DNA of 64,000 bases from a virus. The stretch spans positions 237,151 to 301,150 of the IMG/VR virus record IMGVR_UViG_3300000976_000009; one strand, written 5' to 3'. The notes under the pieces were generated by a model. That model searched no databases. It had not been told where the DNA came from and saw only the letters and a list, made by a program, of their open reading frames with translations. The translations under genes were made by a program, and so were the position numbers. Positions 23,059 through 63,970 of the stretch are shown in pieces. Each line of letters begins with the position of its first letter. Position 1 is the stretch's first letter.

Positions 23059-23183
23059 TTGGTACAAATATAAGTATAATAATTCATTCCACCAAATAAA
23101 ATATGAAAATAAAGTTTTTTTAATAAATTAGGAATAACCAAATAAATATATTATATTTGCTATATCATTAAAAACCAACTCTT

Positions 23184-23867
23184 ATGATTAAAGATAGAGC
23201 ATTAAAAGCTTTAAATTTAGAGCAATACAAAGACACTAATAGACCAGAATGGGTCGGGGAGATAGATTTGAAGCTACCTAGTGAAAGGCAATACATATTA
23301 CGTATGCTAATTAAAAGACCGTTTGGTGAGTGTAAATTACCCAAAGAATTGGAATGGTGTAAGCCAATGGTTGATAAAGCTTTTAATACTCAATTAAAAA
23401 TGGGTATAAGACAACCATTTTGTTATCTAACAATAAGGAATGGGTTGGTTGATAGTGAAACTGATGACGAATGGCACGTTGATGGTTTTAGTCAGACAAT
23501 TACACATTTACCAGAACAAAATTATATTTGGGTAGATAATAATCCTACTGAGTTTATTGTTAAAGAAATTGATATTCCATACGATTTCGATTCTTCTAAA
23601 CACAACATTCATTATTTTATTGATGATAACATAACAGAAAATGATGTTGTTAAAACAATGAATGAGAAGACAATTTATTGTTTAGACCCATATGTTATTC
23701 ATAGGAGACCTAAATTGACAAAAGGCACACAAAGATGTTTTATTAGGGTGTCCTTTACTCCAATTGAGATTGAAGATTGTAATAACACAATTAACCCATT
23801 GATTTCAACAAACTATAAGAGAGATGGTGTTAAGTCATTTAGAAAAAACTTAATTCAATATAAATAA
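23184..23867 (+). CDS. 2OG-Fe(II) oxygenase-like protein
   Basis: WHVDG (HxD), distal IHR and RCFIR motifs. Confidence 0.65.
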   Translation: MIKDRALKALNLEQYKDTNRPEWVGEIDLKLPSERQYILRMLIKRPFGECKLPKELEWCKPMVDKAFNTQLKMGIRQPFCYLTIRNGLVDSETDDEWHVDGFSQTITHLPEQNYIWVDNNPTEFIVKEIDIPYDFDSSKHNIHYFIDDNITENDVVKTMNEKTIYCLDPYVIHRRPKLTKGTQRCFIRVSFTPIEIEDCNNTINPLISTNYKRDGVKSFRKNLIQYK

Positions 23868-23878
23868 TTGATAAATTA

Positions 23879-23931
23879 TTTGGTCAATCCAAATAAATGT
23901 ATTATATTTGTATCAGTCATTAATTAAAACC
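23879..23931 (+). promoter_or_regulatory. Early promoter plus conserved class-1 leader GTCATTAATTAAAACC
   Basis: TTTG-N20-TATATTTG; same leader at 31767, 44640 and 47049, with variants at 33199, 41625 and ~52932. Confidence 0.85.
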
Positions 23932-23938
23932 AAATATT

Positions 23939-24400
23939 ATGAGAGGAATGTCAGAAGCTAATAAAGCAAATTACAAGAGTAAATGTCAAAAGATTAAAGT
24001 AGTTGTTTATGATATGGATAAAGTAGTTGCTGATTTAACAAAGCAACTAAATGAAATGCCAGAACATAAAGATAAAGAATTTCAACTTAGAGATAACAAA
24101 TTAGCTCGTGTTGTTGGTCAAGATATGATTACTGACAATGAGTGTTGTTATTATGATAAGATTGATAAAGGCTTTGAACTTGATGTATACCGTAAGTCTA
24201 AAGAAAAGGTTGACCCAGAAACTGGGAAAAAAACTACTTCATTTTATATGTACCCAACTTGTACAGTAACACTTTCTGAGTCAGATTTGAAAGAGTACAT
24301 TAAAGAAGAAACAACATTAGATGTTTTTATGGGTAGTAGATTTATTTACAACCAAAGAATTGTTGGGAATATTGATTTCATGATTTCAAACATTAAATAA
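23939..24400 (+). CDS. Hypothetical early protein
   Basis: ORF following promoter and leader. Confidence 0.75.
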   Translation: MRGMSEANKANYKSKCQKIKVVVYDMDKVVADLTKQLNEMPEHKDKEFQLRDNKLARVVGQDMITDNECCYYDKIDKGFELDVYRKSKEKVDPETGKKTTSFYMYPTCTVTLSESDLKEYIKEETTLDVFMGSRFIYNQRIVGNIDFMISNIK

Positions 24401-31372: not shown

Positions 31373-31789
31373 AAATAAGTAATATGTTTGAAGAAAAACA
31401 AGAAATTTGTAGAGCCTGTGGAGACAAATGGTATTCAAAATGGTACAAGGATGGTTTTTGCAATAAATGTCAAGAAGATGGTACTTATGACGAATATTTA
31501 TACCAATTAAGTATTAGTAAATTAGTCAATAAAATTTTCACATATTTAGTGATTGGTTTATTAGCTACTGGCTTAATATTATTTTTCACATAATGGCAGA
31601 ACTAATTGTTGGTTTAATAGAATTATTTTTAGAGTTTGGTTTAATGTCCAAATCTGTTGGTGGGTGCTTATTTTGGTTATCTGGAATAATTGGTGTTATC
31701 GTAATCACTTATTTTTTATGGTGCTAAAATTTGGTGGATTCAAATATTATCCTTATATTTGTATCAGTCATTAATTAAAACCAAACATT

Positions 31790-32689
31790 ATGTCACAAGA
31801 AATTAAATTAACAGAAGACGAAAAAGCACAAATTTTAGCAATTAGAAAAGAGAAAAAAGCTAAAGGTCAACTAAGACAAGAAGCTTATGATAAAAATATT
31901 ATTTCTCAAACTGAATATAAACAAAAATGTATTGAGAAAAAAGTTAAGGAAAACCAAGCATTAGTTAATGCTTATGAAAAATATTATTCCCAATTACTTC
32001 TTGTTAACCCAAATTACAAATTAGTAACCGAAGATATTGAATTTTCTGAAATTGTTAAAGTACAAAAATTAGAGTATATTGATGATGAAGGTAATAATAT
32101 TTGGAAAGATTCTGACGGTGATTTTTTGAATGATTCAAAGACAAAAGAGGTAATTACAACATTAACCGCAAAAGGTGTTACTTCAATTATTAAATATGTT
32201 GGTTCAGATGTGCCAAAAGGATGTAATTACCGAGTACAAATAGATGTTACTGATAATGGTGGTAGACATAGAACTAATTTAGTCTACAAAATGCAGTATA
32301 AAGGGACTAATGTTGATTATACTGATGGTAACAGAAAATATACTGTTGCTAAAACGGTTAATGAAAGAATTATTCAACACGTTGAATGGAAAAAAGCTGA
32401 AATTGAAAGAGAAATTCAACAAAATAGTTTAAAAACTAGGGCATTAGCTAAAGCCAAAAGCCAATATATTAATTCTAATGTTATACTTAGTGAATATTAT
32501 ATAAGAAATAGTAATAGTACTTATGATATGCTTATTGTTACTTTAAGTAATGGAATTGAAGTTGAACTTACTTTTAGTGAAAGAGACAATGTTATTAAAT
32601 TTTCAATAAGAGACATTAGAAATAAGCATTCTATTAGTGCGGATGGTCTGATTGGAGCCTTGGCTAAGATTTCACCTAAAGAAGCATAA
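31790..32689 (+). CDS. Hypothetical early protein
   Basis: Follows promoter 31730-31761 and the class-1 leader. Confidence 0.75.
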   Translation: MSQEIKLTEDEKAQILAIRKEKKAKGQLRQEAYDKNIISQTEYKQKCIEKKVKENQALVNAYEKYYSQLLLVNPNYKLVTEDIEFSEIVKVQKLEYIDDEGNNIWKDSDGDFLNDSKTKEVITTLTAKGVTSIIKYVGSDVPKGCNYRVQIDVTDNGGRHRTNLVYKMQYKGTNVDYTDGNRKYTVAKTVNERIIQHVEWKKAEIEREIQQNSLKTRALAKAKSQYINSNVILSEYYIRNSNSTYDMLIVTLSNGIEVELTFSERDNVIKFSIRDIRNKHSISADGLIGALAKISPKEA

Positions 32690-33160: not shown

Positions 33161-33218
33161 TATTAGGATAATATATTATTTTATATTATATTTGTATTGT
33201 CATTAAAAACCAAACATT

Positions 33219-33902
33219 ATGTATAACGGAAGAACAATAAGAGAAGCAATGAAGGAAGCACATGAGAACGTAGATAACTACGGTGGTACGTGGTTCGTTT
33301 GTAGTGATGAGTTCAAGTCTGTTGTGAAAGAATCTTATTTTATAACTGATGAGGGTGACCGTAAAGTTAAACCATTCGTGTGTCTATATAACACTAATGA
33401 TATGAAGTATGGTTTCCATAAAGTCCAATGGGTTAATGGCGAGATTGTCATTGATACTGATGATAGATTAGAGGAAAGATTCTTCCAACCATATGACACA
33501 AAATTTGTTGAAGAAACAGTTGTACATAAGAAACGTAGTATTGGGGTATCTACTACCTCTCCAATAACGATTGGTGACCCACACGTTGGGACTTCTATTG
33601 CCTTAGCTAAAAGTCTAGAAATTGCAAGAATGCATGATAGGTTAAAAGATACCATGTCTCTACCAACTGGTAATTTGATTGAAAAATCTAAAGAGCGTGG
33701 TATTGATATTAAAAATACCTCAAAACCATTTATTATTAATAACCCATATGAGGGTATGAAAAATTGGTTTGATGAACCATACGTTGAACCTAAAGTGTTT
33801 GATATGGCAACTGGTAAAATGAAACCATTACCAGTTAGTGGTTCAATTAGTGAAGAGAAGCGAAAAGCTTTAAGGAAAAAAAGAAAGAAAAGACGTAAAT
33901 GA
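33219..33902 (+). CDS. Hypothetical protein with basic C-terminal tail
   Basis: Follows promoter and leader; ends RKKRKKRRK. Confidence 0.7.
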   Translation: MYNGRTIREAMKEAHENVDNYGGTWFVCSDEFKSVVKESYFITDEGDRKVKPFVCLYNTNDMKYGFHKVQWVNGEIVIDTDDRLEERFFQPYDTKFVEETVVHKKRSIGVSTTSPITIGDPHVGTSIALAKSLEIARMHDRLKDTMSLPTGNLIEKSKERGIDIKNTSKPFIINNPYEGMKNWFDEPYVEPKVFDMATGKMKPLPVSGSISEEKRKALRKKRKKRRK

Positions 33903-33957
33903 TTTGGTTTATTAAATTATTATTCTTATATTTGAATTGTTATTAAAAACCAACATT

Positions 33958-34626
33958 ATGCGAACAGAATTAGAAAAAAAATTAGCAATTCTTACATTTA
34001 AAAAAGAGAGAGAAATTGTTCAAGAAATTACTTTATTTGGTGATAATAACCACACAATAATTGATTATTCAATTGATGTAATTGAAGGTAAATATGATGA
34101 AGATGAAATCTATAACTTAGAAGAAGAAGAAGTTATTACTGAGGGGGAGCGTTCAAGTATTATTGAAGTTTGCTATTGGGTGACAGGTAATGGTGAGGAA
34201 TTAGTCGATTTGCTTTGGAATGAGGAAAGCCTAGTTACTGAGTTACCAAATGAAAGTAAAGTTGTTAGTCAGAAGCATTGTGCTAAGACTTGCAAAGAAT
34301 GTCCGTTTTCAAATACTTCACTACCAGGTTGGTTGTCAGATTATACTGGGCAAGATATACTTAATTTCAAAAATGCTGAGGCAAGTTTCCCTTGTCATAT
34401 GCAAATGACTGATGGTGATTTGTCAGTAGAGCAAACTCAACAAGCAATTGATAAAGGTGAAATGAAACTTTGTCGAGGATATGTTGAATTTGTCATTAAG
34501 TCATGCAAGCAAGTTACTAAAAACGAGCAACTAGCAAAAGCAATTGAAGAAGTTAAAGCGGATGGATTGTCTGACCACACAATGAGTATGTTTGAATTTT
34601 TTAAGCACCATAAATTAGAAGTTTAA
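33958..34626 (+). CDS. Hypothetical protein with Cys-rich C-terminal domain
   Basis: CKECPF...FPCH...LCRG. Confidence 0.7.
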   Translation: MRTELEKKLAILTFKKEREIVQEITLFGDNNHTIIDYSIDVIEGKYDEDEIYNLEEEEVITEGERSSIIEVCYWVTGNGEELVDLLWNEESLVTELPNESKVVSQKHCAKTCKECPFSNTSLPGWLSDYTGQDILNFKNAEASFPCHMQMTDGDLSVEQTQQAIDKGEMKLCRGYVEFVIKSCKQVTKNEQLAKAIEEVKADGLSDHTMSMFEFFKHHKLEV

Positions 34627-36153: not shown

Positions 36154-36187
36154 TTTGGTAGATTCAAATTAATTACTTATATTTGTA

Positions 36188-36336
36188 ATGTAGATATGAT
36201 AAGCTAGATAAAAAGGTACTGACCGCTACAGGAAGAACTACCAACTAGATGTCGGGGTATTGACCCTCACTGCCACCTAAAGTCAATCGAAACTGGAACG
36301 TATGTCAGTGGAGCTAAAGGGGTGGAATCTATACAT
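36188..36336 (+). ncRNA. Putative structured RNA directly after a promoter
   Basis: Closing stem ATGTAGAT/ATCTA(TA)CAT; ATTGAC/GTCAAT, CACTG/CAGTG and CCACC/GGTGG pairings; promoter at 36154-36185. Confidence 0.55.
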
Positions 36337-36355
36337 CATTAAAAACCAACAAGAA

Positions 36356-36892
36356 ATGAGTGATACAAAAAAAGTAGTAGAAAAAAAAACAACACCAACT
36401 GAGGTAGTATTTAACCTTATTAGTACTTTGATATTGATTGGGTCTGATATTGACCTAAAAGCAATGTTTACTGAACAAGGTAAATATAGTGATGACTTCA
36501 AGATGCACGTAACTATGGCAAGAGGTGGTTTATTTAAAAAGTCTGCTGAGAAATTTGTCAAAGGTATTTTCACAAATGTAATTCTAAAACGAAAAGAGTA
36601 TTTGGATGCATACATTACCATTGAGGCTAAAGAGTTAGCTAAAACTGAAAAGAAGTTACCAAAATGGTATGGTAAGAAGCAATTACTTGCTGATATTGAA
36701 AGCCAAGAAGGTGAAATGAGTGAACAACAAAGAATGATGTTGAAAGTCAATGATTTGAAAAACATTTTCTCTAAGTTAAACCGTAAAGGTATTAATAATT
36801 GTCTTGGAGATGGAAAAATGACTGACAAAGAATGTCGTGATGTCATTGCTTCAATTACCCAAATGGAGAATAAACTTAAAGACATACTATAA
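36356..36892 (+). CDS. Hypothetical protein
   Basis: Start MSDTKK after CATTAAAAACC leader. Confidence 0.7.
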   Translation: MSDTKKVVEKKTTPTEVVFNLISTLILIGSDIDLKAMFTEQGKYSDDFKMHVTMARGGLFKKSAEKFVKGIFTNVILKRKEYLDAYITIEAKELAKTEKKLPKWYGKKQLLADIESQEGEMSEQQRMMLKVNDLKNIFSKLNRKGINNCLGDGKMTDKECRDVIASITQMENKLKDIL

Positions 36893-36899
36893 GATATAT

Positions 36900-37079
36900 T
36901 GGGGTGTGGTGAAAAGGTAGACACGCCAGTCTGATGTACTGGTGCAGCGAGAAGCGGGTATAATACTGCGGACAGGTGAATACCATAATGCCTACTAATA
37001 GTTAGACTATAAACTGAGTCCGAATGGATAGGTGTAGGGGAGAAAGTTTGGCATGGAGGTTCGATTCCTTCCACCCCAA
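36900..37079 (+). tRNA. tRNA-like RNA, anticodon GAT, with a 112-nt variable region
   Basis: Acceptor TGGGGTG/CACCCCA; class-II-type D-arm GTG..GGTAGA-CAC; anticodon arm CCAGT-CTGATGT-ACTGG; T-arm GGAGG-TTCGATT-CCTTC. Confidence 0.8.
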
Positions 37080-37081
37080 CA

Positions 37082-37308
37082 AAATTAATTTGAGAAAAGC
37101 GAAAGCTAAACTAAAAGTACTAGGAAATTACCACCTAGGAATCGCTGAGTAAGGAGTAGGCAGATGGTCTCTGTTATACAACGTTGAAATTCGAATAACC
37201 TAAAAGCGAGGGTGTAGTTGAGATGAATAGGGGGCTTCATTGCTTGTGACTGAGGAAAAGGTCATTACTGATAGCAACTTGTATCTGCACATTTCTTCAA
37301 ATTAATTT
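37082..37308 (+). ncRNA. Putative ~225-nt structured ncRNA
   Basis: 12-bp closing stem AAATTAATTTGA/TCAAATTAATTT; GCAGAT..ATACAA.GTTG pairs with CAACTTGTATCTGC; ORF-free and GC-elevated. Confidence 0.6.
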
Positions 37309-37357
37309 GTTTTTACGAATTATTATTCTTATATTTGTATTAACATTAAAACCAACA

Positions 37358-37789
37358 ATGATAAAAACAAATAATACAGTAATTTCAGACAAACACTTTG
37401 ACACAATATCTAACCTATTGGATGGAACTGATTTCAATGGTGTAGATTATGATAAAAGTAAGTCACTATTCGAATATGGATTTGTATATGATGGTAGAAG
37501 TAATTCTTTAATTTCAACTCATACATTAGATATTTGGAATGATAAAGAAGCCCCAATACGGTTTGGGGTGGTTGAATTAACCTTAGATAGAATTGATGAT
37601 GTATTCAATGAAAATTCAGAACAAATATTATCTGAGACAAACACAACCTTAATAGAATGGGATGAATTATGTGATTCATATAAGATTAACCTAATTGAAA
37701 ATACATGTGGTGGTCTAAACCTTAGCGGTATGAAGATGGATGTAACTAGTGAGAAATTGATTCAATATTTAAAAACTAAAATAGATTAA
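37358..37789 (+). CDS. Hypothetical protein
   Basis: Follows promoter and CATTAAAACC leader. Confidence 0.65.
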   Translation: MIKTNNTVISDKHFDTISNLLDGTDFNGVDYDKSKSLFEYGFVYDGRSNSLISTHTLDIWNDKEAPIRFGVVELTLDRIDDVFNENSEQILSETNTTLIEWDELCDSYKINLIENTCGGLNLSGMKMDVTSEKLIQYLKTKID

Positions 37790-38086: not shown

Positions 38087-38118
38087 TTTGGTAGTGTCAA
38101 AACTATTACTTATATTTG
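38087..38118 (+). promoter_or_regulatory. Promoter driving the ORF-free RNA cluster
   Basis: TTTG-N20-TATATTTG. Confidence 0.85.
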
Positions 38119-38122
38119 TAAT

Positions 38123-38257
38123 GTCAACAAAGGATAACGTACTCAACGGTAAGTAGTGTCTGAGAGCCAGAGTGAAACTGGTAAGGAGGTTCGTAAGCGA
38201 TTTAGTTCGAATTGAGAATGCAAAGTGCCTATCCCTCCTAATTATTCCAATGTTGAT
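38123..38257 (+). ncRNA. Putative structured ncRNA
   Basis: GTCAACA/TGTTGAT closing stem; AGGAGG/CCTCCT; CCAG-AGTGAAA-CTGG hairpin. Confidence 0.6.
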
Positions 38258-38261
38258 AAAT

Positions 38262-38449
38262 GGTGATTGTAAAAAGGTGGGTAGTTAGTAAACTAGTTAA
38301 AAAACACAGAATTACGTAATAAGTGTTCAATATATACTAGTGTGAAGGCGAGCAAATTGGATAGCGTATCCCACGCCCAAAGCAAAAGACTAAGCTAGAA
38401 ACAGTCTATTGTCGTGGAATTGAAAAAGGTTCAACTCCTTACTTCACCA
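38262..38449 (+). ncRNA. tRNA-like-ended ncRNA (alternative 5' end at 38341)
   Basis: T-arm AAGG-TTCAACT-CCTT; 3' CTTCACC-A-CAA pairs with GGTGA (38262) or GTGAAG (38342); CCACG/CGTGG arm with an expanded loop. Confidence 0.65.
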
Positions 38450-38454
38450 CAAAA

Positions 38455-38655
38455 CGTCTGGTGTCAGATTAGATTCTATAGATGACTACATGGTTATTCA
38501 TGTCTGAGCAAGTTATCGTGGTAACACTAAGTATAGGATATTGATTTGGTGACAAATATTATATAATATATTTCTGAAAATAGATTTAGTCGCTCAGATA
38601 GATTGAAAATAAGAATGTTTTATATAAGTTGTAGGTTCGATTCCTTCCCAGATGA
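38455..38655 (+). ncRNA. tRNA-like RNA with anticodon arm replaced by a large branched domain
   Basis: Acceptor CGTCTGG/CCAGATG; D-like stem GTCA/TGAC; TGTCTGAGC/GCTCAGATA; T-arm GTAGG-TTCGATT-CCTTC; ends A-CTA. Confidence 0.72.
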
Positions 38656-38663
38656 CTAAATAT

Positions 38664-38798
38664 GTTTTAATGGTGTGAGCATTAAATAAATGGAGAGTAC
38701 TTGAAATTTATTTATGTATTAGTCTAAGAGATAATTGGCATTAATCACATACGCATAAAGCAAGCACTTTATGTAGGGTTCGAATCCCCAATAGGACA
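38664..38798 (+). ncRNA. tRNA-like-ended ncRNA
   Basis: GTTTTA/TAGGAC acceptor-like stem; T-arm GGG-TTCGAAT-CCC; internal GTGTGA/TCACAT and GCATAAAG/CTTTATGT stems; ends A-CAA. Confidence 0.62.
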
Positions 38799-38802
38799 CA
38801 AA

Positions 38803-38960
38803 TTGAACTAACTGATAAGGGAACTCAATGACCCAGATAGACTTGGATAGAGGATAACGTAAGGGAATATGTGTGGTGGTATAACGAGATAGTAGGACTG
38901 AAACCTATAATACCATCTAAGTGATGGGAACAGTAAAAAGCCCACATATATTTGTTCTTT
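38803..38960 (+). ncRNA. Putative structured ncRNA
   Basis: TATGTGTGG/CCACATATA stem; ATAG..TAGG-ACTGAAA-CCTA and CCATC/GATGG hairpins. Confidence 0.5.
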
Positions 38961-38964
38961 TAAA

Positions 38965-39064
38965 TTAAAAATGTTAAGAGTTTTAGCATCATAGCTCGGT
39001 TGATATGGTTTAGAAAATAGTTTTACGTAGACTATACCACCCTTCCAAAACAGATGTTTTTTAA
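38965..39064 (+). ncRNA. Putative small structured RNA
   Basis: TTAAAAATGTT/GATGTTTTTTAA closing stem; ATAGTTT/AGACTAT hairpin. Confidence 0.35.
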
Positions 39065-39435: not shown

Positions 39436-39599
39436 GTTTTATTTATAAAATACTAAAAGTTGTATGTGTTATATCATACGTTTTAGTTTATTTGGTTTAT
39501 GGGGCAATGTGGTGTTGCCCCAATTTTCTAAAAATAATTGTAAAAATTAGGAATAACCAAATAAAGTTGTTATATTTGTACCACACATAAATTAAAAAT

Positions 39600-39926
39600 A
39601 TGAAAAAAGGATTTATTATAGTACTAGTTCTTGGACTAATTTTAGCATACCCAATTGCAAAATTTTCAAGTGTTGAAGTAATTGAAGTAACCATTACTGA
39701 TAAAGAAAGAATTTCAACAGGGAGTGGTGATGATTTAGAACATAAATTCCTAATATATACTAAAAATGAAGTATTCGAAAATACTGATGCTTTATTTCAA
39801 ATGAAATGGAATAGTACTGATGTTCAAAATGATTTGAAAAAAGATTCAACTTATAAAGTTAAAGTATGGGGTTGGAGGATGCCGTTTTTCTCAACCTATA
39901 GAAATATTATTTCAATTGAAAATTAG
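39600..39926 (+). CDS. Secreted/membrane-anchored phage protein
   Basis: N-terminal TM; VTITDKER, VFENTD and GWR.PFFS.YRNII motifs. Confidence 0.7.
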   Translation: MKKGFIIVLVLGLILAYPIAKFSSVEVIEVTITDKERISTGSGDDLEHKFLIYTKNEVFENTDALFQMKWNSTDVQNDLKKDSTYKVKVWGWRMPFFSTYRNIISIEN

Positions 39927-40240
39927 GAATAACCAAATAAATTATGTATCTTTATGTTATGGATAACGTGATGTTTAATGAAGAATTTGAAGTTGAAGTC
40001 TTAGAGCATTTCACTTACGCTCAACTAGAATATTTTTCCAATACCTTAGTAAATGCTATTAAGGATTTGGAAGAGATAAAAATGATGGCTGTTCTTTGTC
40101 AAAAAGATAAAGTAGCTGTCGAGTACCAAAGGTACATACACATAGCTAGAGCAAACCGAGAGGCAATGCTTGTTGTTATGTTAGCTAAAGAAGGTGATGT
40201 TTGTGAACATACAGATATTGAAACTGTTTGGCTAAACTAA

Positions 40241-40322
40241 ATTGCACTTAATCCTCCGCTCGGAGGTAATTCATAAGTGGTTTTAATGATGACAGAAAAG
40301 GCGAGGTGGTTCTCGCCTTTTC
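40241..40322 (+). ncRNA. Candidate sRNA complementary to the class-1 early leader
   Basis: Hairpin CACTTA..CCTCCG/CGGAGG..TAAGTG, then TGGTTTTAATGATGAC (complement of GTCAT.ATTAAAACCA), then terminator GAAAAGGCGAG/CTCGCCTTTTC. Confidence 0.5.
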
Positions 40323-41587: not shown

Positions 41588-41644
41588 ATTTGGTAGATTC
41601 AAATATTATTCTTATATTTGTATTGTCATTAAAAACCAAATTGA

Positions 41645-43527
41645 ATGGGAATATTAGATAATATAGGTAATTTTAGGGTTGGTGGCTCAATTGATGCACA
41701 ATTTCGAACAGGTAATGCCTTAGAACGTATTATGATAGCCTCTGGTCAACAAGTTGGTGGATTCACCTCTTTCTTGACTACATTAGAGCTTTTTGGATAT
41801 CTCCTATTAATGTTTACTGGGATATTCATTATCTGTGCATTCGCAATTATATATATTCTAATATTTGTTGCTAGAGTATGGGGTTACTTATTTCCTTCAA
41901 AAGCTCAAAAAAAGGCATATGCTAAGGCTAAAGCAAATGGTGAGTTCATGAGTGATAAGGAATTAGAACAAAGACTTAACAGATTCGAATTAACAAAAGA
42001 GGAAGAAGAAGAAATTAAAAATATGCATTAATATAAATTCATGGGAAAATTAGATAATAATAATAATAATTGGTTCTCTACAAATGATAATATTGATACA
42101 GGTGTATCGGTATTAATTGGTATTATATTTATACTACTTGGGTTTAAACTCCTTAATGATTTAAATAATAGTGATGAAACTAATGATATTACTATTGATA
42201 CTGAATTAGTTCAATGTATTGAACAGGGATTCATTGACAATAAATTTGTGGTAGATACTACAATGATTGATTATCCAGATTGGGTATATAATGATATGGT
42301 AATAACGTATTATAGTAACAGTTTTATTAGAGTTAGTATTGATAATACTAACATTAATATTAGTGATGATGAAGAAGAAAGAATTAAAACAATTTTAAAC
42401 ACTTATTCCGACTATACTTATGTCGGTACTCAAAGGAGATTAAGAAATAAATTCACAAAAGATTGTAAATAATTATGAAAGAAATGTCTTTATGGGATAA
42501 ACTTCTATTAAAGGGTTTTACCTACAAAATAATAACACACCCATTAAGTTTTTTTGATAAAATTAGAAATTTATTTGGGGCAAATATTAAAGGGAAAAAA
42601 GAAACTAATTTTGAACATCTTATTAAAATAATTAATGGTAAAAGTGTTGAAGTATTTGGTTTAGATATCTGGTATACTAGAGTTACTGTTGATGGTGAAA
42701 CAATATTTGATGCTAGAAGATTTAATGATGATATTTTGTTTGATGCAATAAATAATGCAACAAAAAAACCGACTACTAACAAAGAAGATAAGTGTATCTG
42801 TGATATGAATGCGAATGGTGAGCAAATCGGTGGGTTTTGTTTAAAACATAAGACCGATTGGTTGTAAATTATTAAAAATGCCAAAAAATTTAATTATATT
42901 ATATTTCTCAATATTATGTTTCGTTGCAATTATTGGTTGTGTTGTCTCAATATTCAAGTATAATAAATTATATAAAGTTAATATTGTTGAAGCCAGACCC
43001 AAACTAATTGGTGCTTTAATTAACTTTGGTGTTGCACTTATTTCATTTGTGATAATTCTATTAAACCGATAATGATGTTATATACTATAGTATTTCTTGT
43101 GGCAATTGTCTTACTAATTATTGGTGAGAAACTTAAATTATATAGTAGAGTAACTAGTTTAGTTAGATATAGACTAGATATGATTATTCTTTTATTTGCA
43201 AAGAAATGCCATAAGCAGTTAGAAAAGGATAAGGAAATACACAAAGAAATTATTAAGTCTAATTTCACCAAACAGTATAAGCGAAGTCCATACAGTTGGA
43301 TGTGGTTGATATTACCGCATTGGAGATGGTATCTAGCTAAGTATGAACCTAAAAAATATGCCCAAAGATATTCTGATGCCACTACTGATAGACCACCAAA
43401 ATCTCATCGGTTAAAGTTATGGAAAATTAATGGTTATAAATATAAATTTTATTTACTTAGGAGACTAAAAACTAATTCAATAATTAATAAACATATTAAA
43501 TTAGCACTAGAGGAAAAGAAAAGATAA
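41645..43527 (+). other. Run of five small membrane/hypothetical CDSs (41645, 42041, 42475, 42878, 43072)
   Basis: Abutting ORFs, most with TM segments. Confidence 0.65.
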
Positions 43528-43568: not shown

Positions 43569-45665
43569 ATGGATTTTTTTATAATATTATTACTACTGAT
43601 TTTTAGTGGATTCATAGGTATTAGTGCCTTAAAGGTACGTAATAAAGTTAAGCGTACTAGGTTTATTGATAATCTACCCAATAATATAATTAAGGATTGG
43701 AGTGCTAACACAAGTAGTTACAAGATAAGTACTTATAATTCTGATGATATAATTGCCGTATATCGTTTTAACAATGGAGATAAAATTAGTCTTTTTAAAA
43801 TTCTTGATAAGAAAGTTATTGTATACGATAAAAAAAGAGGTAGAACAACTAACCATGTTATTTATTCATGGGATTGGAACGAAATTATTAGTGTACTTAA
43901 TAAAGTATTAGATAAAGCTAATGGTGGTTCTAAATACCGTACATCTAACTCAAAACCTAAACCAAAGAAAACTAACCCAAACCACTCACACCCAAAATGG
44001 GATAGATATTGGTCACTTATTCTAACAATTAGACAAAGAACTACAAACCTAGAGAATTACCCTAAAGGTCACCCAGATAGACCTTCAAGAGTTAATGAAT
44101 TGAACTCAGCTAAGAGAAGAGCTAAAGCAATGAAGGAAAGATACAACTTTTAAATACTATACTATATGAATTACATTGTCATTAAAACAATCCCAACTGA
44201 GGAACTAAAAGAACATAAAGATTATATTGGGTATCTATTCAAAAACCAAGATGGTGTTTACAATATATGTGACACTTTGGAAGATATTGTTAAGTCAAAC
44301 CAATGGTCTAACAATAGACCAGTCCATTCAATTATGGTATCGGATGAGCCAATTAAAGTTGGTGATAAAATACTAGTTACTTGTGTTAACCAAGAGATGA
44401 ATGGTAAAACATTTACTTATAATGGTGATGCAACAACAGGTGTCGATTTAACCTCCCTAACTGATAGGGGTGGTAATGAAGTCTTAACAACTAAATTCAT
44501 TTTGGATGGTGCATATAAGGTTTTAAGAGCTACTAATAGAGAGGATAAAGAGAAGTTGGTCAATGGAATTATTACACCAATTTTAAAATAATTCACTAAA
44601 TGTTTGGTAGTTAGATATATTATTCTTATATTTGTATCAGTCATTAATTAAAACCAACTAAAATGGGTAACTTAGATAAAATATTAGAGCCATTATTTAC
44701 AACAACTAATAAGTGGAAAATATTCATTGTTTCATTTATTTCTATTTTTATTGTTGGAGTAACTATATCGTATCTGTTTAGTGATAATACAAAAGCTTCA
44801 ATATTATTCGCTTTGTTTTTAGCATTTTTATTTAGTGGTGTATTTACATCTATGATTGCATTATCTAGACTTAGCATTGAATTTTATAAATTTGCCGAAG
44901 ATGTGGAAAATATGATTCGCAATAATGACCCATATAATGATGTTTTGAATAAACTTAAGGAATTAGATAAGCTGTCATTTCATAGAACAACTAGTGAGCG
45001 AATTAGAGAGTTGATTAAGATGACTGAAATTAAATATGGTGTCCAATTATTAAAACGTTAATATGAAAGAAACTAAATTAACATTAGATATTATACAAGG
45101 ACTTGGGATGGAAAGTCAAAGCTACAAACCAGACCATGATGATTTTGGACTAAAGTTTTTATTACCTAAAACTGGATTCGAATTAACTTGTCTTACAGTA
45201 TGTAATGGTGAACCATGTGATAGTGATTCATTAGAAGGAATGGACGGTTGGTTATATATTACAACCAAAGAAGAGATTGAAAGAGTAATGGAGTTAGATG
45301 AGAACCAATTGTTTGAGTTTATTGAGGCTGATAACCCAGAATTTGATAGAGAAGATTTCGAATAAATACCATAGAACATGAAAAAATTATTATTTTTAAT
45401 GGTTGTATTACTATTGACTAGTTGTGTTGATAAGAATCTGACTGAAAAGAAAACCAAATACACTATTGAAATTCTATATGAAAATGGTGATAGTGAAAGT
45501 ATTTCACAAGTAAGAACTTATTTTGACAAATCTTGGTATTATTTAAGTGAAGATGGTTGTCTAATATATAAAAGTAATAATAAATTCCTTTTTGAACGGG
45601 TTGCTTGTGATGTTCGTAGGTTTAATATCACAAAAAAAGAAAATTTATTAAAAGAAGAATTTTAA
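43569..45665 (+). other. Run of hypothetical CDSs (43569, 44166, 44663, 45063, and lipoprotein 45378)
   Basis: Abutting ORFs; promoter at 44603-44634 with class-1 leader; LLTSC lipobox in 45378. Confidence 0.65.
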
Positions 45666-46705: not shown

Positions 46706-47828
46706 ATGAAAAAGAAATATTTAGTATTTTCAAATAAGTTACACGAATATACTATTGTCTCAAAACTAAGGGATGATAATACTACTATTCATACATTATC
46801 ACATTCACATGGTGAACAATGGTCTGAAACAACCAAAGGTAAGAAATGTTTGCAAATTATTGAAGGTGACTTAGAAATGGAAATTGTTAAACCAAAAATT
46901 GGTATGCAGTCTTATTCTGATATTATTGAAATGAAATTATTAATTGATTTTATAACTTCAAAATATAATAATGATGAATTTAAAGTAATTGAAGAAAAAA
47001 ATGTGAATAAATTTGGTAATTAGAATTAAATGTATTATATTTGTACCAGTCATTAATTAAAACCAAATATTATGTTTAAAGATAAAGAATTTACTGTTGA
47101 ACAAGGACTTAAAATTCAAGGTGAACAATTAACTGAATGGGAAAGTAAACTACACCCAGAATGTTATAAAGACTTAGTAGCACATGCTACTTCGACAAAC
47201 CACCTAGCTAAAAGTGGCTTGGAAGTTTGTCGAGGAAATAGTCTTTCAAATTTCATAGCCAATTGGAAGCCTAGTAAGGATGTTAAACCAAATGTTCAAT
47301 TTGAGAATGTTAAAATTGAAGCTGGTGATAGTGTTATGAGTAAGGATGGTAGTTTTATTGTTGATGGGTTTTATTACCATTTGAGAGCCTTATTTGTCAC
47401 CACAAAATGTGGTAAAACAATTAAAGGTTATGGAATTACTGGTGTAATTAAAAAAGATTAATATGGTAGGTTTTATATTATTATGTTTAGTAGCATTAGT
47501 TTTATTAATAACAGGTATTATATCAGTAAATGAGTATGATAGTTCTGGTTTTTGGCTTATAATATTTGCGATAATTATCGCATTACTTAGTGTTACTGAG
47601 AAAACAACTAAAATTGGTGAACCATTGTTAATTGACCATAACAAAATTTCCGTTATGTATGATGAAAATGTGGTAATTATTAGATATGATGGTAATACAT
47701 TTGAATATACTGATGTGAAAAAATACAAAGCAATTAAAAAAGGTAAATTTAAATTATTTGTTATTAAAGAATATAATATTCTTGGTAATTTAAAAAGTAG
47801 AAGGTTTGAACTAAAATTAATAGAATGA
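46706..47828 (+). other. Hypothetical CDSs 46706..47023, 47072..47461 and 47463..47828
   Basis: ORFs; promoter at 47012-47043 with class-1 leader. Confidence 0.65.
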
Positions 47829-48362: not shown

Positions 48363-48433
48363 AGAGTGTATAGTTTAATTGGTAGAACAGCCCCGATGAG
48401 GGGCGGGTTTGGGTTCGAGTCCCAATGCATCTC
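48363..48433 (+). tRNA. Aberrant tRNA (5-nt anticodon loop, bulged acceptor stem, C discriminator)
   Basis: D-arm GTTT-AATTGGTA-GAAC; GCCCC-GATGA-GGGGC; T-arm TTGGG-TTCGAGT-CCCAA; ends C-CTA. Confidence 0.75.
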
Positions 48434-48456
48434 CTAAATTATTAATAATAAAGAAT

Positions 48457-50967: not shown

Positions 50968-53900
50968 ATGGATATTGAAATAACAAGTTATATTGATTTT
51001 AGCAAACTTTTTGCTGACTTATTTAACTATCATGAAAATGATTTAATTGAATATCAATATGAATCAGAAACATATAGTAATTTATTGAAATTTAATGCCT
51101 CAGCTAGAAATAGTTTTGATTTGATAATTGATGAATGTGAATTGTCTGATAAAACTATTTCATTTATATTTGGATATGATTTTAATGATGCAAATGAAAG
51201 TAATACACAAAGCTCATCTGCTGATTATCATATTATATATGATAGAATATTAGATGAATTTACTGATTGTATTTATTCACAAGGTTAAATTATGATAATA
51301 ACATTAGTATTAATAGCAATATTTGTTTTAATTGTATTAGAAAGTCAATCTAACACACAAACAAACTCAACCTCTCAACCACATGTATCTACAAATACTA
51401 TTGTATTACCAAACGATATAGTGTGTCCAAATTGTGGTAATGATAAATTTAATCCAATAAGAGATTTAGATACTAATACTTTTGATATAATTTGTCCAGA
51501 GTGCAAAGAGGTTGCTTGGATTAACCCAAATAGAGAAGAAAGAATACAACAATTGAATAGTATGATTGATATGCTAGATTAAATTTGGTGATATCAAATA
51601 TTATTCTTATTTTTACAATATGGAAAGAGAAAAAACATTAGCTAAATTCACAGAATTATTCACAACATTCTTATCAAATAAAAAACACCGTATTCATAAT
51701 AATATTGGTGGTCGTTATTTGAAAAAAAACCAAGCGAATATTATTAATAGTGATAGCAATAATAAATATATTAATAATGCGTTTGAAACCGAATTTTATA
51801 TTGGAGACCAAAAGCTTGATTTAGATACTTTAAAAAAATTAAATAAATGTTCTAAGAACAAAATTAATCTAAGTCTGGTTGATAAAACTATTAATTTATC
51901 TAAAAAAACTGTTGTACTTAATTTTGGTGATAAGCCAAATTTAGTGTTAACTGAACATATTACTCCTAAATTAGCTTATAATATTGAACATAAAATTGTT
52001 TGGCGAGGCATATTTAGACGTATATTTTTTATAAAATTAATTGTGAAGGAATCTAAATATGTTACAAATACTAGTAGAACATTTAAATTTGGTAGTATTG
52101 TGATTAATTTAACCGAAGGAGAATTTAATAAATTGTTTAGTATAGCGGAAGAATTTAATAAGGTGAGACCTAATGAAATTGATGAAGCGATTTTAGATAT
52201 TAGAATTAACGAATACAAAGAAAGCTAAACATGGGTTATATTGATTCAGAATTAGGGATAAAAACAGCCAAAGGTTTAGCTAAGTATTTCACAAGTATTT
52301 TTGGTCAACAAGTTATGGCTATAAAAGTGGCTAATTCAGTTAGGTTGATATGGGCAGTAGATAATAAATTACATACTCATGATATTAAGGCTAGTGTAAT
52401 TTATGTCATACAAGAAGAACAGCTTGATGTAGCAATGAATGAAATTAAAAATACAATAATCAAAAAATAATTTGGTGATATCAAATATTATCCTTATATT
52501 TGTAAAACAAAATTGGATAATATGTCTTTAAATAAAAACACAATAGCATACGGAGTTAGAATTAAATTGAAAGATAACTTTGTTCAGAAATGTATTGGTG
52601 ATAAATTTCTAGTAGAACAAGAAGATATATTATTTATTTCTGAGGGTCATGTCTATAATGATTCAAAAGGTGAGTATGTTATGATTAAAGGCGGGTCATT
52701 AACCAATTCTGGTTATGCATACCTAGATGAGTTAGAATTATTACACCCAGTCCCAAATAAACCCATTGTAAATAAACCACACCAACACGTTTTAAATTGC
52801 GTTGAACATGAATTAATTAACGCCAAAGATGGTGATGAAATTAAAATTATTGTTCAAGAAAATAAAGTTGAAATTTGGAACGGTAGTGTTTATACTGGTA
52901 GGCATATATTCAAATAGAATTTTGCTACCCATCATTAATTAAAACCAAAGATTATGAAATTATTTAGTGAAGATGAAATACACGATTTAGTGTTTGATTT
53001 AAATGATGAAATTGATGATTTACTTTCAGATGGGTATTCAGCATCTTCACCAATAGTTAAAAGACGTGAAGATAAAATTAATTCCTTAAATAACCAAAAA
53101 TTAAGTTTCGAGAATGGTAAGAAACACATTAACTTAAAAGATATGACTTTTGTATCTGATGAACTTAGTGGGATTATTTTCATTCAGTCTAGATTTAATA
53201 ACGGACATTTCTTAGGTTTTTGGTCTCACTCACCTTGGGGTACATGTAATGACCAAGAAACTGGTTGGGTAGTATTCAACCCACATACATTTGAAATTAT
53301 TGACCAATGTGAGACTAAACATAATGGTGAATATAGAGAATGGCGTAGAGATATTAAAAATAAATTTGGTGGGGCTAAAACCATTAAAGATATGTCTGGT
53401 GAAACATTGTGGAAAATGTCTGAAACATAATGAAAGATAGAAACCAATTCATAGAAGCTGACGGTCTATATTGGGAGAATGAAACCCAAGAATGGTTTAT
53501 CGACAAAACGTTAACCCAATATGCACATAAGGATTCTGCAACATCACAAGATGACACATTACCATATATTTTTTGTTTTTGGGTTCGAGACAAAACAACT
53601 GGTGAATATGAAAATATTGTTATGGATAACCAATTTAAAGAAGTTGTTCATTCCTCAAAATTCGGTAGTTGTACAACCTACGTTGATAGACTTAAAGTAG
53701 AGAAACGATTCGGTATGCATAAAGAAAAATTCATTACTAGAGTATTTGAGGAAATTGATAAAGAAGATGAAAAAGATATTTAAAAATGGTATTGTATATA
53801 TTAAGTATTATGGTAAGAAAGACCGTATAACTAATCGTGTACTAGTCATTGGTTTCTTAAGAAAATACTTCAAATTCAAATTTTTCTTATACATTTATTT

Positions 53901-59740: not shown

Positions 59741-60164
59741 ATTTTGTCCCACAGCGAGTACACAAAACCTTAAAAAACATTATGTCATCTGTTTATTCAC
59801 GTTCGATATACGTAAAATTTTTGAGATACACAAGCTTTTCGACAATTATTTATCAACAAAAATTTGTGCATAAAAAAGCTTCTAATTCCTTGTGTATATG
59901 ATATAGTTTTCCTATATGACTTTTCACTGGTAAAAAGAAGCATTAAACATATGGACATGACAGTTGGCTTGAGACACCTAATTTTTTTGTGTAACAAGTT
60001 TGCCCCAAACCTTACTATAGTTTCGGGTATGAGGTGGCTGTCCGCCTATGCAGATATGAATTGAACAAAACAAATATACAACAAAATTATCAGTCCACCA
60101 AATTTTTGTGTAACTATTTTGTTATTTGTAATGATTCTAAATAAAGGAAAGTATAAGGCACAGT

Positions 60165-60219
60165 GGAGTCTACTCTTTCGTAATGTTTCCATTCTGACCC
60201 GTCTCTGTTTCCAACCGAC
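60165..60219 (-). ncRNA. Duplicated minus-strand RNA scaffold, copy 1
   Basis: GTCGGTTGGAAACAGAGACGGGTC-[AATG GAAA CATT]-GAAAGAGTAGACTCC, directly after promoter 60224-60255. Confidence 0.65.
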
Positions 60220-60346
60220 AATACAAATATAAACATTAGTTTTGACACTACCAAATAAAAAGTGATTTATTTTTAATATCCTATAGTATTAAATTAATTT
60301 GTTTCTATAACCCCTATGAATGCTACAAAGTTAAAAATAATTGAAT

Positions 60347-61168: not shown

Positions 61169-61232
61169 ATATGAATTGAACAGCTTGTCAATGTACATGG
61201 GGGTTAACGCCCCCTCATCAAATTAATTTAAA

Positions 61233-61296
61233 TAAATACTATACAATATTTGGTAGAACCATAAATGTTTCTTATATTTGTAATGTCAAATTAACT
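61233..61296 (+). repeat. 64-bp direct repeat, copy 2
   Basis: See 60347. Confidence 0.9.
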
Positions 61297-61576: not shown

Positions 61577-61611
61577 GCTTTATTAAATATTATTAGACTA
61601 TAGGGTAAGTC

Positions 61612-61659
61612 GGAGTCTACTCTTTCACCATAGGCGACCCGTCTCTGTTTCCAACTGAC
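61612..61659 (-). ncRNA. Duplicated minus-strand RNA scaffold, copy 2
   Basis: GTCAGTTGGAAACAGAGACGGGTC-[GCC TAT GGT]-GAAAGAGTAGACTCC, after promoter 61664-61695. Confidence 0.65.
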
Positions 61660-61808
61660 AATACAAATATAAGGATAATAATTCATTCCACCAAATATAA
61701 CTTGAAGTATTTTTATCTTATATAATATTTGTAAATTAGTTGTGATATTATTTGGTAGTTAGATATATTATCCTTATCTTTACAGAGTCAAATTAAAACA
61801 ATAAAACT

Positions 61809-63729
61809 ATGAGTAATCCAAATTATATTGTCGGTAAATTAAGTATAGCACAAATTACATCTGATAGTTTGTTATATGAAATTGAATTAGCCCTTAAAGG
61901 TCGTGAGGCATTTATTGATAACACACCAATTGAAGAAAAGATTTTTTTAGGTGATGTTTTTCAAGCAATAATTGATGAAGACAAAGTAAGTGCAAAAGCA
62001 ATGGGACAACTTGAAACATTAAATAACCAAGTTGTTGAATTTAATTATATTCAGATTATTTAATTTTGTAAGCATAATATTTGGTTTATTCAGATATTAT
62101 GCTTACCTTTATCAAACGTCAAATTAAATACTATATAATATGAAAGATTTTCCAACATTTGAAAAAATAGAAACAGGGATTGAATTAAATGAAGATTTCA
62201 TTCCTAATTCTAATTTATTATATGATGTTTACCACAATGGTAAAACAACAATAATGGTAAAGCTTCCCGATACACCACAAAATAAAGGTTGTGTTGGGTA
62301 TGACATAGCACCAAAAACATTAATTTATGATATGGACAAACCACTTAGTGAATTTACTGGTGATGAGGTTGAAAGTATTTTAGATTACCGTGGTATGAAT
62401 GTGGTTGATGATGGATTTGAAGCGGCTGATGTTTTTATGGAAATGTCACACGTAACCCTTAGAGGTATTCAAATTGAGGTAACAATGACTGGTACTGCAA
62501 CTGTTAAATTAGAAGACGGTGAAACGTTAGAAGATTTAACCGAAAGATATGGTGACATATACTTACACGGTGCTGGTGAAAATGGTTATGAAGATAAAAC
62601 TGATTTAGGTGGTGACATTACTATTAAAATAGTTTAAAAATAATTCACTTTTTATTTGGTTGTTAACTTATATTGTATTATATTTGTTATGTCAAATTAA
62701 AACAATAGAAATTATGATTAGAGTAGTTATTATGTCGGGAACAGCTTACGGAAAACAAGTAGCTGATATGTCAACAGATTATGATGGTGAAACATTAGCA
62801 GATGAAGGTAATGTTGTCATTTATGGTGAGACAGTTGAACAGATTGAAAAGGAAACGGGACTATCTATACAAATGGTATAGTCCCAACCATCAAACGTCA
62901 AATTAAATATTATATAACATGAATGCATTTCAAATCAATTTACAAACGATTTTATTCTTAACTGATAATTCAGTTTTAGGGGCATATAACGAAAACAAAA
63001 AGATGCTTGTATATAACAAACCACTTTGTCAAGTTGAAACAATGAACCATATTCTAAGTGTTCTAAAGGAGAAAGGAAAAGAAGTTGTATTTACATACCA
63101 AACTGATTCCTTTGGGGTTAATTTCTACGACCCTAAGAGTGGTGGTACTAGTGTATTCCATGAGGTAAAAGGTACAGTAGTTGAAGGAGCAGACCCAATT
63201 GAATACAATGATATTATACCTAAAGAAGAATTTAAAGACTTCTTGAAGGATTTAAAAGAGTTGGATGGTGATGCCTATGAAAGTGAGAGTAAAGATGCGT
63301 TTTTAGATTGTTATGAGTATTGGACGGCTAGAGGTCATAATAGATTTTTAGATAAGGTTGAACTAAATAAAATGAGATTAGAAAGAGAAAAAGCTTAGTA
63401 AAAGTTTGGTAGATTAAAAAAGATTACTTATCTTTACAGAGTCAAATTAAAACTAAAACATTATGTCACAAGCAGTACAATACGCACAAGGATTTTTTTT
63501 ACAATTAGATACTCATAGAAGTGGGGAACTATTAAACGCAATGCCAGTACCTACAATGATTACATTATTGAAGTTTGGTAAGCGAATGAGCCAAGAAGCC
63601 CAAGAAGAAGCAATTGAATGCAAACTATTGGGTCGTGAATTAGAAGCAAATGCAACGGCAAAGGATGTTGGAACAATACAAAAGAACTTAAATTCATTAC
63701 AAAAAGCGTATGATTACGCAATGAATTAA
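61809..63729 (+). other. Five hypothetical CDSs, each behind a GTCAAATTAA leader (61809, 62140, 62714, 62919, 63463)
   Basis: Class-2 leader at 61787, 62118, 62692, 62897 and 63441. Confidence 0.7.
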
Positions 63730-63836: not shown

Positions 63837-63864
63837 TTTATCAATTATATGGGTGGCGAGCATA

Positions 63865-63970
63865 GTGATATGTTTTAATTTGACACCAAAAGCAAGGACT
63901 ACGAGAATTTACTTTCGTTATAAAGTCCACACCATTCGAGTACTTGCTTTTATTTTTAGTGTGTCACAAA
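63865..63970 (+). ncRNA. Putative structured RNA containing the complement of the class-2 leader
   Basis: TGTTTTAATTTGAC (63871-63884); stems TGACAC/GTGTCA, AAAAGCAAG/CTTGCTTTT and GGACT/AGTCC. Confidence 0.5.

Follow-up and report, generated by a model that had tools for sequence, protein, structure and literature searches.

Why does the tail of a small phage gene carry, in reverse complement, the leader that the same phage places ahead of many of its other genes? The question arises at positions 40241–40322 of a 64,000-nucleotide stretch of DNA (the window; positions 237,151 to 301,150 of the IMG/VR virus record IMGVR_UViG_3300000976_000009), where the original prediction had placed a candidate small RNA antisense to the class-1 early leader; the sequence and coordinates that it gave were correct. 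The genome around the window is that of a complete phage of 353 kb, with 31.7% G+C and a gp23-type capsid gene, and comparison of this capsid with annotated phages placed Flavobacterium immuto phages among the best matches, all of which fall below 45% identity. Its promoters combine a TTTGG-type box with a TATATTTG box and are densest at about 260–307 kb of the genome, and from this promoter type we infer a Bacteroidetes host. The covered part of PMC9723704 places the second promoter box of Flavobacterium at -12 to -5, and transcription starts were therefore predicted five bases past the box.

Behind many of these host-type promoters stand near-identical leaders, which fall into two classes. 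The class-1 leader (GTCATT..AAAACCA and variants) occurs in the window in nine promoter-led copies and in two more for which no box was detected, and the class-2 leader is GTCAAATTAAAAC. The leader genes are presumably early, given their host-type promoters and the clustering of small genes, and the motif ATATTTAT, which stands ahead of 21 of 75 gene gaps in the core region, was taken as the late promoter of the 353-kb phage. Eight copies of ATTAAAACCA are present in the window against 0.82 expected, seven on the + strand and one on the - strand, the latter being the anti-leader site. The leaders predicted to pair with this site are the following.

23164..23186, + strand: predicted target leader of gene 23184 (phrog_1843), pairing net -10.9
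23915..23941, + strand: predicted target leader, class 1, net -12.8, rank 1
31766..31792, + strand: predicted target leader, class 1, net -11.7
33199..33221, + strand: predicted target leader, class 1, net -8.3
33939..33960, + strand: predicted target leader of a gene in phrog_5443, net -8.6
37342..37360, + strand: predicted target leader with an 11-nt perfect match, before ORF 37358, net -11.5
41625..41647, + strand: predicted target leader, class 1, net -7.3
44639..44665, + strand: predicted target leader, class 1, net -12.4
47048..47074, + strand: predicted target leader, class 1, net -11.2
52931..52956, + strand: class-1-like leader, promoter box not detected, net -8.1

A separate class-1-like leader (36335–36360) lies inside the called ORF 36302, which suggests that the true start of that gene is 36358.

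The anti-leader itself sits in the tail of a 93-aa gene, the parts of which are laid out as follows.

39923..39954, + strand: host-type (Bacteroidetes sigma-A-like) promoter with a TTAGG box and a TATCTTTA box, predicted start 39959 (promoter scan; box spacing from the covered part of PMC9723704)
39959..40240, + strand: 93-aa ORF, predicted leaderless, with the anti-leader in its 3' UTR; the protein is predicted to be a helical hairpin
40245..40279, + strand: 5' hairpin pairing CACUUA (40245–40250) with UAAGUG (40274–40279), with an inner CCUCC/GGAGG stem; hides the anti-start-codon half
40272..40293, + strand: anti-leader, complementary to the class-1 leader over the stretch between +1/+2 and the AUG, with 40280–40288 as a predicted open toehold
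40295..40322, + strand: terminator-like hairpin with an A-tract and a U-tract, which could act on both strands; a simple terminator scan did not pick it up
40248..40274, - strand: MNYLRAED* frame, which we regard as a side effect of the complement

The ORF begins at the very base where its transcript is predicted to start. The protein has three homologs (62–75%), all on short contigs, and gave no family match, no atlas match reaching 0.8 and no fold match at E<=0.001. Within the anti-leader, the core is TGGTTTTAATGATGAC (40278–40293), and CATAAG (40272–40277) extends the complement, adding an anti-start codon. The order of hairpin, exposed segment and terminator that had been proposed was borne out by folding, the tail having a z of -4.15 with none of 200 shuffles equally stable, but the description 'largely exposed' applies to 40280–40288 only: these positions have an unpaired probability of 0.8–1.0 in a model of the 3' UTR (lower in full-mRNA models), while 40274–40279 are paired and 40289–40292 mostly paired in the 3' UTR model.

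No promoter belonging to the element itself was found, and the late motif ATATTTAT is absent upstream of it. One candidate for an internal promoter, a TTTGT box with a ACTGTTTG box inside the gene, was ruled out on its missing TA. The notion of a small RNA is supported in part, by comparison with other phages, as regards antisense to leaders; lacking its own promoter, the putative RNA would need to be processed from the mRNA or to act as the mRNA tail. What the site does share with 3' UTR-derived small RNAs is a predicted terminator end, an accessible seed and complementarity to the initiation regions of other mRNAs. A weak anti-leader-like stretch was also noticed at 39476–39530, ahead of the terminator at 39500.

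The strength of the match was gauged with eight distinct class-1 leaders against the 281 terminator windows of the genome, with dinucleotide shuffles as a control. The 40272–40293 element ranked first (-16.3, compared with -12.7 for the runner-up), and none of 2000 shuffles was as good; among 3617 non-coding windows it was beaten only by the reverse strands of two real leaders. In target prediction over 553 gene starts the top four were class 1, as were six of the top eight, and 16 of the 25 class leaders appeared in the top 20; the 11-nt complement reported before ORF 37358 was likewise present. That we are dealing with an ordinary terminator and a chance AT-rich match is very improbable. It would be in keeping with a cruder, plain alignment score over the whole genome including coding sequence, on which the element comes 10th among non-leader peaks (two of the higher ones being real leaders), and with the failure to find a homolog of the locus, but it is at odds with the first rank among terminator windows, with the class-1 identity of the top targets, and with the 21 family matches and the copy in the cultured phage immuto_2-6A described below. 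The class-1 match exceeds chance for a non-coding, terminator-proximal site, and the element is, on the evidence of its sequence, a real and selected-looking one.

A second site of this kind, directed at the other leader class, was found near the end of the window.

63861..63884, + strand: second anti-leader, with 13 nt perfectly complementary to the class-2 leader GTCAAATTAAAAC and an anti-start codon, followed by a long hairpin at 63888–63951

All of the top ten targets predicted for 63861–63884 among the 553 gene starts are class 2. The tail at 63861–63951 folds no better than its shuffles (z -0.98), and the terminator finder did not call the hairpin at 63888–63951. Just beyond the window lies a 62-aa orphan gene with a GSKTP motif (genome 301155–301340), which is flanked on both sides by anti-leaders against class 2, one at window 63861–63951 and the other at genome 301340–301420. 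Eight homologs of this gene were found, none of them in a PHROG, and the flanking by anti-leaders is kept in several related phages: in the ten loci with an ortholog, an anti-leader stands upstream in seven and downstream in five.

For the 40272–40293 locus itself, no homolog with DNA was found by protein, pattern or DNA search of viral contigs, metagenome contigs and annotated phages; 21 candidate loci that were examined were not syntenic with the 93-aa gene locus, and 12 other loci had no repeated leader cassettes. The nearest relative, G001, shares 96% capsid identity and does not cover the region of the anti-leader, and G002 looks like a further piece of it. Relatives were therefore gathered by the promoter–leader cassette (54 metagenome and 25 viral loci) and by capsid, and the family statistics drew on 14 records plus 29 metagenome loci out of the 54 (the strict test used 30), with duplicates and short or leader-poor loci omitted. 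With each phage scored by the leaders that it carries itself, predicted terminators directly followed 68 of 1416 anti-leader peaks, against 19.3 expected (35 groups), while the controls gave 41 against 19.7 (downstream), 25 against 20.0 (sense copy) and 37 of 1861 against 26.7 (reversed leaders). In a strict test that gave wobble pairs no credit, 24 of the 577 terminator windows reached at least 12/13 identity, compared with 3 for the sense copy and 2 for the upstream control, these controls not having been pruned equally and several of the records being close relatives. Three of the 24 proved to be true leaders on the other strand; 21 remain, in 15 records and 14 context clusters, and 40272–40293 is not one of them because the test was ungapped and used GT-starting leaders only.

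The anti-leader is a minority feature among terminator tails. By energy, 38 of 389 units outdid their shuffles by more than 3 kcal/mol and one was worse by that much, about 5 of the 38 being real leaders on the other strand on inspection, and the average terminator window showed no pairing advantage over one placed 100 nt upstream (p=0.92). Examined stretches of G001, G041, L151, L158, L175, L180, the L247–L249 phage, LR756500 and LR756502 held no convincing element, and G003 held weak cases only; L150, an early match, turned out to be a real leader and was dropped. The late motif precedes 4 of the 21 strict matches and 52 of 687 in the comparison set (p=0.076), which is no enrichment. Three tRNA arrays (L227 near 19300, L167 near 4560 and L174 near 1800) begin with promoters followed by AGTTCTTTGAA, which we take to be boxA-like, and close with an anti-leader that includes an anti-start codon; in those of L227 and L167 a CAAAGAAC-type complement of the 5' motif AGTTCTTTGAA also stands before the terminator.

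The copies in relatives follow the leader of their own phage. In the set defined by the 62-aa gene, elements from phages with T at leader position +7 have A as the facing base (six of six), and those from phages with C there have G (six of six); the tree of the 62-aa gene hints at two origins of this change, with no supported branch. Ranked by energy, the exact cognate leader set came first in only four of ten position-defined windows. In a 7x7 matrix, all seven chosen elements paired best with the leader class of their own phage, a result that speaks only for non-generic affinity since the seven had been selected for cognate matches. Wobble-type changes were seen as T>C at 11 of 136 positions, compared with 1 of 249 for the mirror transition A>G, in 38 rows that include three true leaders, and come mostly from one lineage. 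In G045, L137 and L138 a 24-nt block bearing the anti-leader is invariant despite diverging flanks, and is preceded by a CACTT/A[AG]GTG hairpin that bears a resemblance, perhaps without homology, to the front stem at 40245–40279. L137 and L138 also have a promoter of their own, some 95 nt ahead of the point where the element ends, so that the unit there looks like a free-standing small RNA gene. Stretches of about 135 nt containing the invariant 24-nt block, at L137 495–630 (-), L138 3073–3225 and L235 2015–2150 (-), are candidate non-coding RNAs.

Such co-change would also be produced by gene conversion, and one might suppose that the element works as DNA: an inverted copy of the leader created by cassette recombination and kept alike by conversion, or a site that a phage protein binds. 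The cassettes are indeed abundant direct repeats, similar to the PeSLs described in the covered parts of PMC4122927, and promoterless sense copies behind hairpins show that leader copies move around. Several features make a role at the DNA level unlikely. Copies before terminators are biased in orientation, with 24 antisense and 3 sense, and the position around the orthologous 62-aa gene is kept, at 7/10 upstream and 5/10 downstream. The block in G045, L137 and L138 stays invariant amid divergent flanks, and the copied segment stops at the transcription start: over the 12 bases upstream of the start, identity in the strict matches is 0.13–0.61 per position and 0.13 at the final G of the box, which indicates that the promoter is not copied in anti-leaders.

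A further case comes from a cultured phage, Flavobacterium phage immuto_2-6A (NC_055915.1), of which 100 of 160 kb were examined. Its leader motif is present in 16 copies, of which 15 are identical, on the + strand and each behind a promoter box; the one on the - strand (record position 72109) lies just past the stop of gp135, with a hairpin ahead and a terminator-like hairpin after it, the whole unit spanning NC_055915.1 72090–72150 (L252 22090–22150). Among 81 terminator windows this antisense copy scored -12.9 and was beaten only by three reverse strands of real leaders, the next value being -6.5. With one antisense copy to 15 identical leaders, immuto_2-6A is a ready laboratory model for the idea. 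The antisense relation to shared leaders that had been predicted for the window is supported by comparison, as it recurs before terminators in relatives, tracks the leader of each phage and halts at the transcription start, in addition to naming class-1 leaders as its top four of 553 predicted targets.

The alternative offered with the original prediction, in which the minus strand carries a leader and the mini-ORF MNYLRAED*, fared poorly and is, in our estimate, highly improbable. The frame exists, its leader-to-ATG spacing is like that of real leaders, and units of hairpin, leader and ATG precede real genes in G040, L150 and at window 62897. These units, however, lie on the coding strand before long ORFs, whereas near the element no minus-strand promoter is convincing and a U-tract stands ahead of the leader copy; moreover, among the 21 family members 12 have no ATG in this reading and the other nine give frames of 2–27 aa. 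An ORF at 44166–44195 begins ATGAATTAC, like the minus-strand frame of the element, with a GTCATTAAAAC copy just within its coding region, which may be chance.

If the tail acts as RNA on the plus strand, it could do so in cis, folding back onto its own mRNA's 5' end or onto the leader that comes next in a read-through RNA (icaR-like) and thereby limiting translation to a short window. Many family members belong to units opening with a class leader; for L137 and L138, pairing is predicted between the element and the 5' end of the RNA that carries it, and in L130, L159 and L131 a composite terminator–promoter stands between the element and the leader that follows. At 40272–40293, by contrast, the own and neighbouring 5' ends gave net values of +11.2, +8.5, +0.5 and -0.9 kcal/mol, that is, no pairing, and the nearest class-1 leaders lie 2.9 kb upstream, beyond the terminator at 39500, and 1.3 kb downstream; no class leader accompanies the copies that follow tRNA arrays. 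Across 389 units, the nearest own 5' end stood at a mean percentile of 0.50, the end from the first promoter at 0.48 (p=0.07) and the downstream leader at 0.49 (n=177), and in the 38 strongest units the own end stood at 0.56 and the downstream leader at 0.43 (p=0.09), values that, because class leaders are alike, carry little weight against cis pairing in units, such as that of immuto_2-6A, whose own leader belongs to the class. We regard cis action as an unlikely account overall, and since 40272–40293 cannot pair with its own 5' end, action in trans is favoured there.

Because related phages, one of them cultured, mirror their own differing leaders, the tail is likely an RNA that would pair with early messages. 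The explanation that we put a little above even is that 40272–40293 is an antisense RNA borne on a 3' UTR, whose base-pairing in trans to the 5' ends of likely early mRNAs would hold back their translation as negative feedback, on a regulon defined by the leader that about ten phage genes share. The anti-leader would be transcribed from the host-type promoter at 39923–39954, and hence early; the terminator-protected tail would persist, perhaps after cleavage, with the front hairpin as a shield. Pairing may nucleate at the open GUUUUAAUG, extend to the first base of the mRNA and then, as the front stem opens, to the AUG, so that the A-rich initiation region, the Bacteroidetes substitute for a Shine–Dalgarno sequence, becomes masked. 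A silencing effect would be in keeping with work in the host group: upstream adenines promote initiation in Flavobacterium and structure there lowers translation (PMC6847099, in the part covered), and GibS represses at initiation regions in Bacteroides (covered part of PMC7366714). Against this reading, the late motif is absent here and not enriched in the family, so that the anti-leader RNA would be made at the same time as its targets; timing would then come from the accumulation of stable tails, whose build-up could exert a delayed negative feedback on the early burst. Each leader class would have one anti-leader, 40272–40293 for class 1 and 63861–63884 for class 2.

Trans pairing could instead be protective, the covered first bases shielding early mRNAs from 5'-end-dependent decay or keeping them in store. 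The complement is fixed to the extreme 5' end of the mRNA, and in the leader-sense reading an ATG is missing from 12 of 21 members, both of which would suit such a role; but the duplex also extends over the A-rich initiation region, and here over the AUG as well, where structure lowers translation in Flavobacterium (PMC6847099, same part), and we consider protection quite unlikely.

In lytic phages that rely on host promoters, the turning down of early genes is known mostly through proteins. If the negative-feedback reading is true, a regulon-wide antisense brake would be an RNA route to the same end in hosts without Shine–Dalgarno initiation and without obvious Hfq. More tentatively, and as a proposal that we hold to be possible yet short of even, large Bacteroidetes phages may mark their early mRNAs with a shared 5' address and carry one matching anti-address in a 3' UTR for each leader class, a protein-free RNA timer that would close the early programme and mute an incoming relative with the same address, and that may have arisen or been retuned repeatedly, from the 160-kb immuto phages to 350-kb jumbo phages. 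The c4 RNA of P1 and P7 is a phage antisense RNA grouped with sar, OOP and aQ, and an Rfam search of the element, c4 included, gave a best E of 0.25, far under gathering scores. The function of small RNAs in lytic phages is described as unclear in the covered part of PMC8244752, and neither Hfq nor ProQ is obvious in the host group according to that of PMC7366714.

A published description of the arrangement was not found in the openly searchable literature; the likenesses that follow refer to the covered parts of each source. 3' UTR-derived trans-acting bacterial RNAs (PMC7821165) have a 3' UTR seed, an intrinsic terminator end and pairing with the initiation regions of other mRNAs, as predicted here, whereas the anti-leader is phage-encoded, anchored at +1 and directed at one standard 5' end common to 10–25 mRNAs of the phage itself. 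GibS of Bacteroides thetaiotaomicron (PMC7366714) shares an AU-rich extended seed, initiation regions as targets and a Bacteroidetes cell, but is a host intergenic small RNA with a few metabolic targets. Like sar of P22 and OOP and aQ of lambda (PMC12197685), the anti-leader would be a phage RNA that blocks expression of its own phage by pairing; those act at one locus each, as switches of temperate phages, and here the target is a regulon of repeated leaders. The icaR mRNA (PMC3868564) has a complement of an initiation region in its 3' UTR and pairs with its own 5' UTR, while the mRNA of the 93-aa gene is leaderless and shows no such pairing. The PeSLs of T4-like phages (PMC4122927) resemble the target cassettes in being repeated promoter–leader units, often fused to stem-loops, in a region of small genes, but they are direct repeats and recombination points, and an inverted leader before terminators is not described in the parts covered; the anti-leader, being inverted and without a promoter box, does not qualify as a PeSL.

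Several other repeated units were observed in the region. A short GC hairpin with a promoterless sense copy of the leader recurs at window 62860–62921 and 61195–61240 and in G040 (L220 16990–18460); the units in G040 and at 62897 precede internal genes, which suggests that the leader acts at the RNA level. Behind minus-strand promoters lies a repeated non-coding unit that ends in GAGTAGACTCC, at window 60140–60231 and 61600–61671, and also at 60078 and 23072, and similar units ending in AGTAGACTCC follow promoters in L122, L123, L153 and L247, together a candidate multi-copy non-coding RNA family. Long non-coding stretches with tRNA-like T-loop ends occupy 36178–36300, 36900–37290 and 38111–39060, two of them behind promoters; in the second, Rfam recognised a 180-nt tRNA with a large insertion (36900–37079) that was missed by ARAGORN, which elsewhere called a tRNA-His with the unusual anticodon ATG at 48364–48434.
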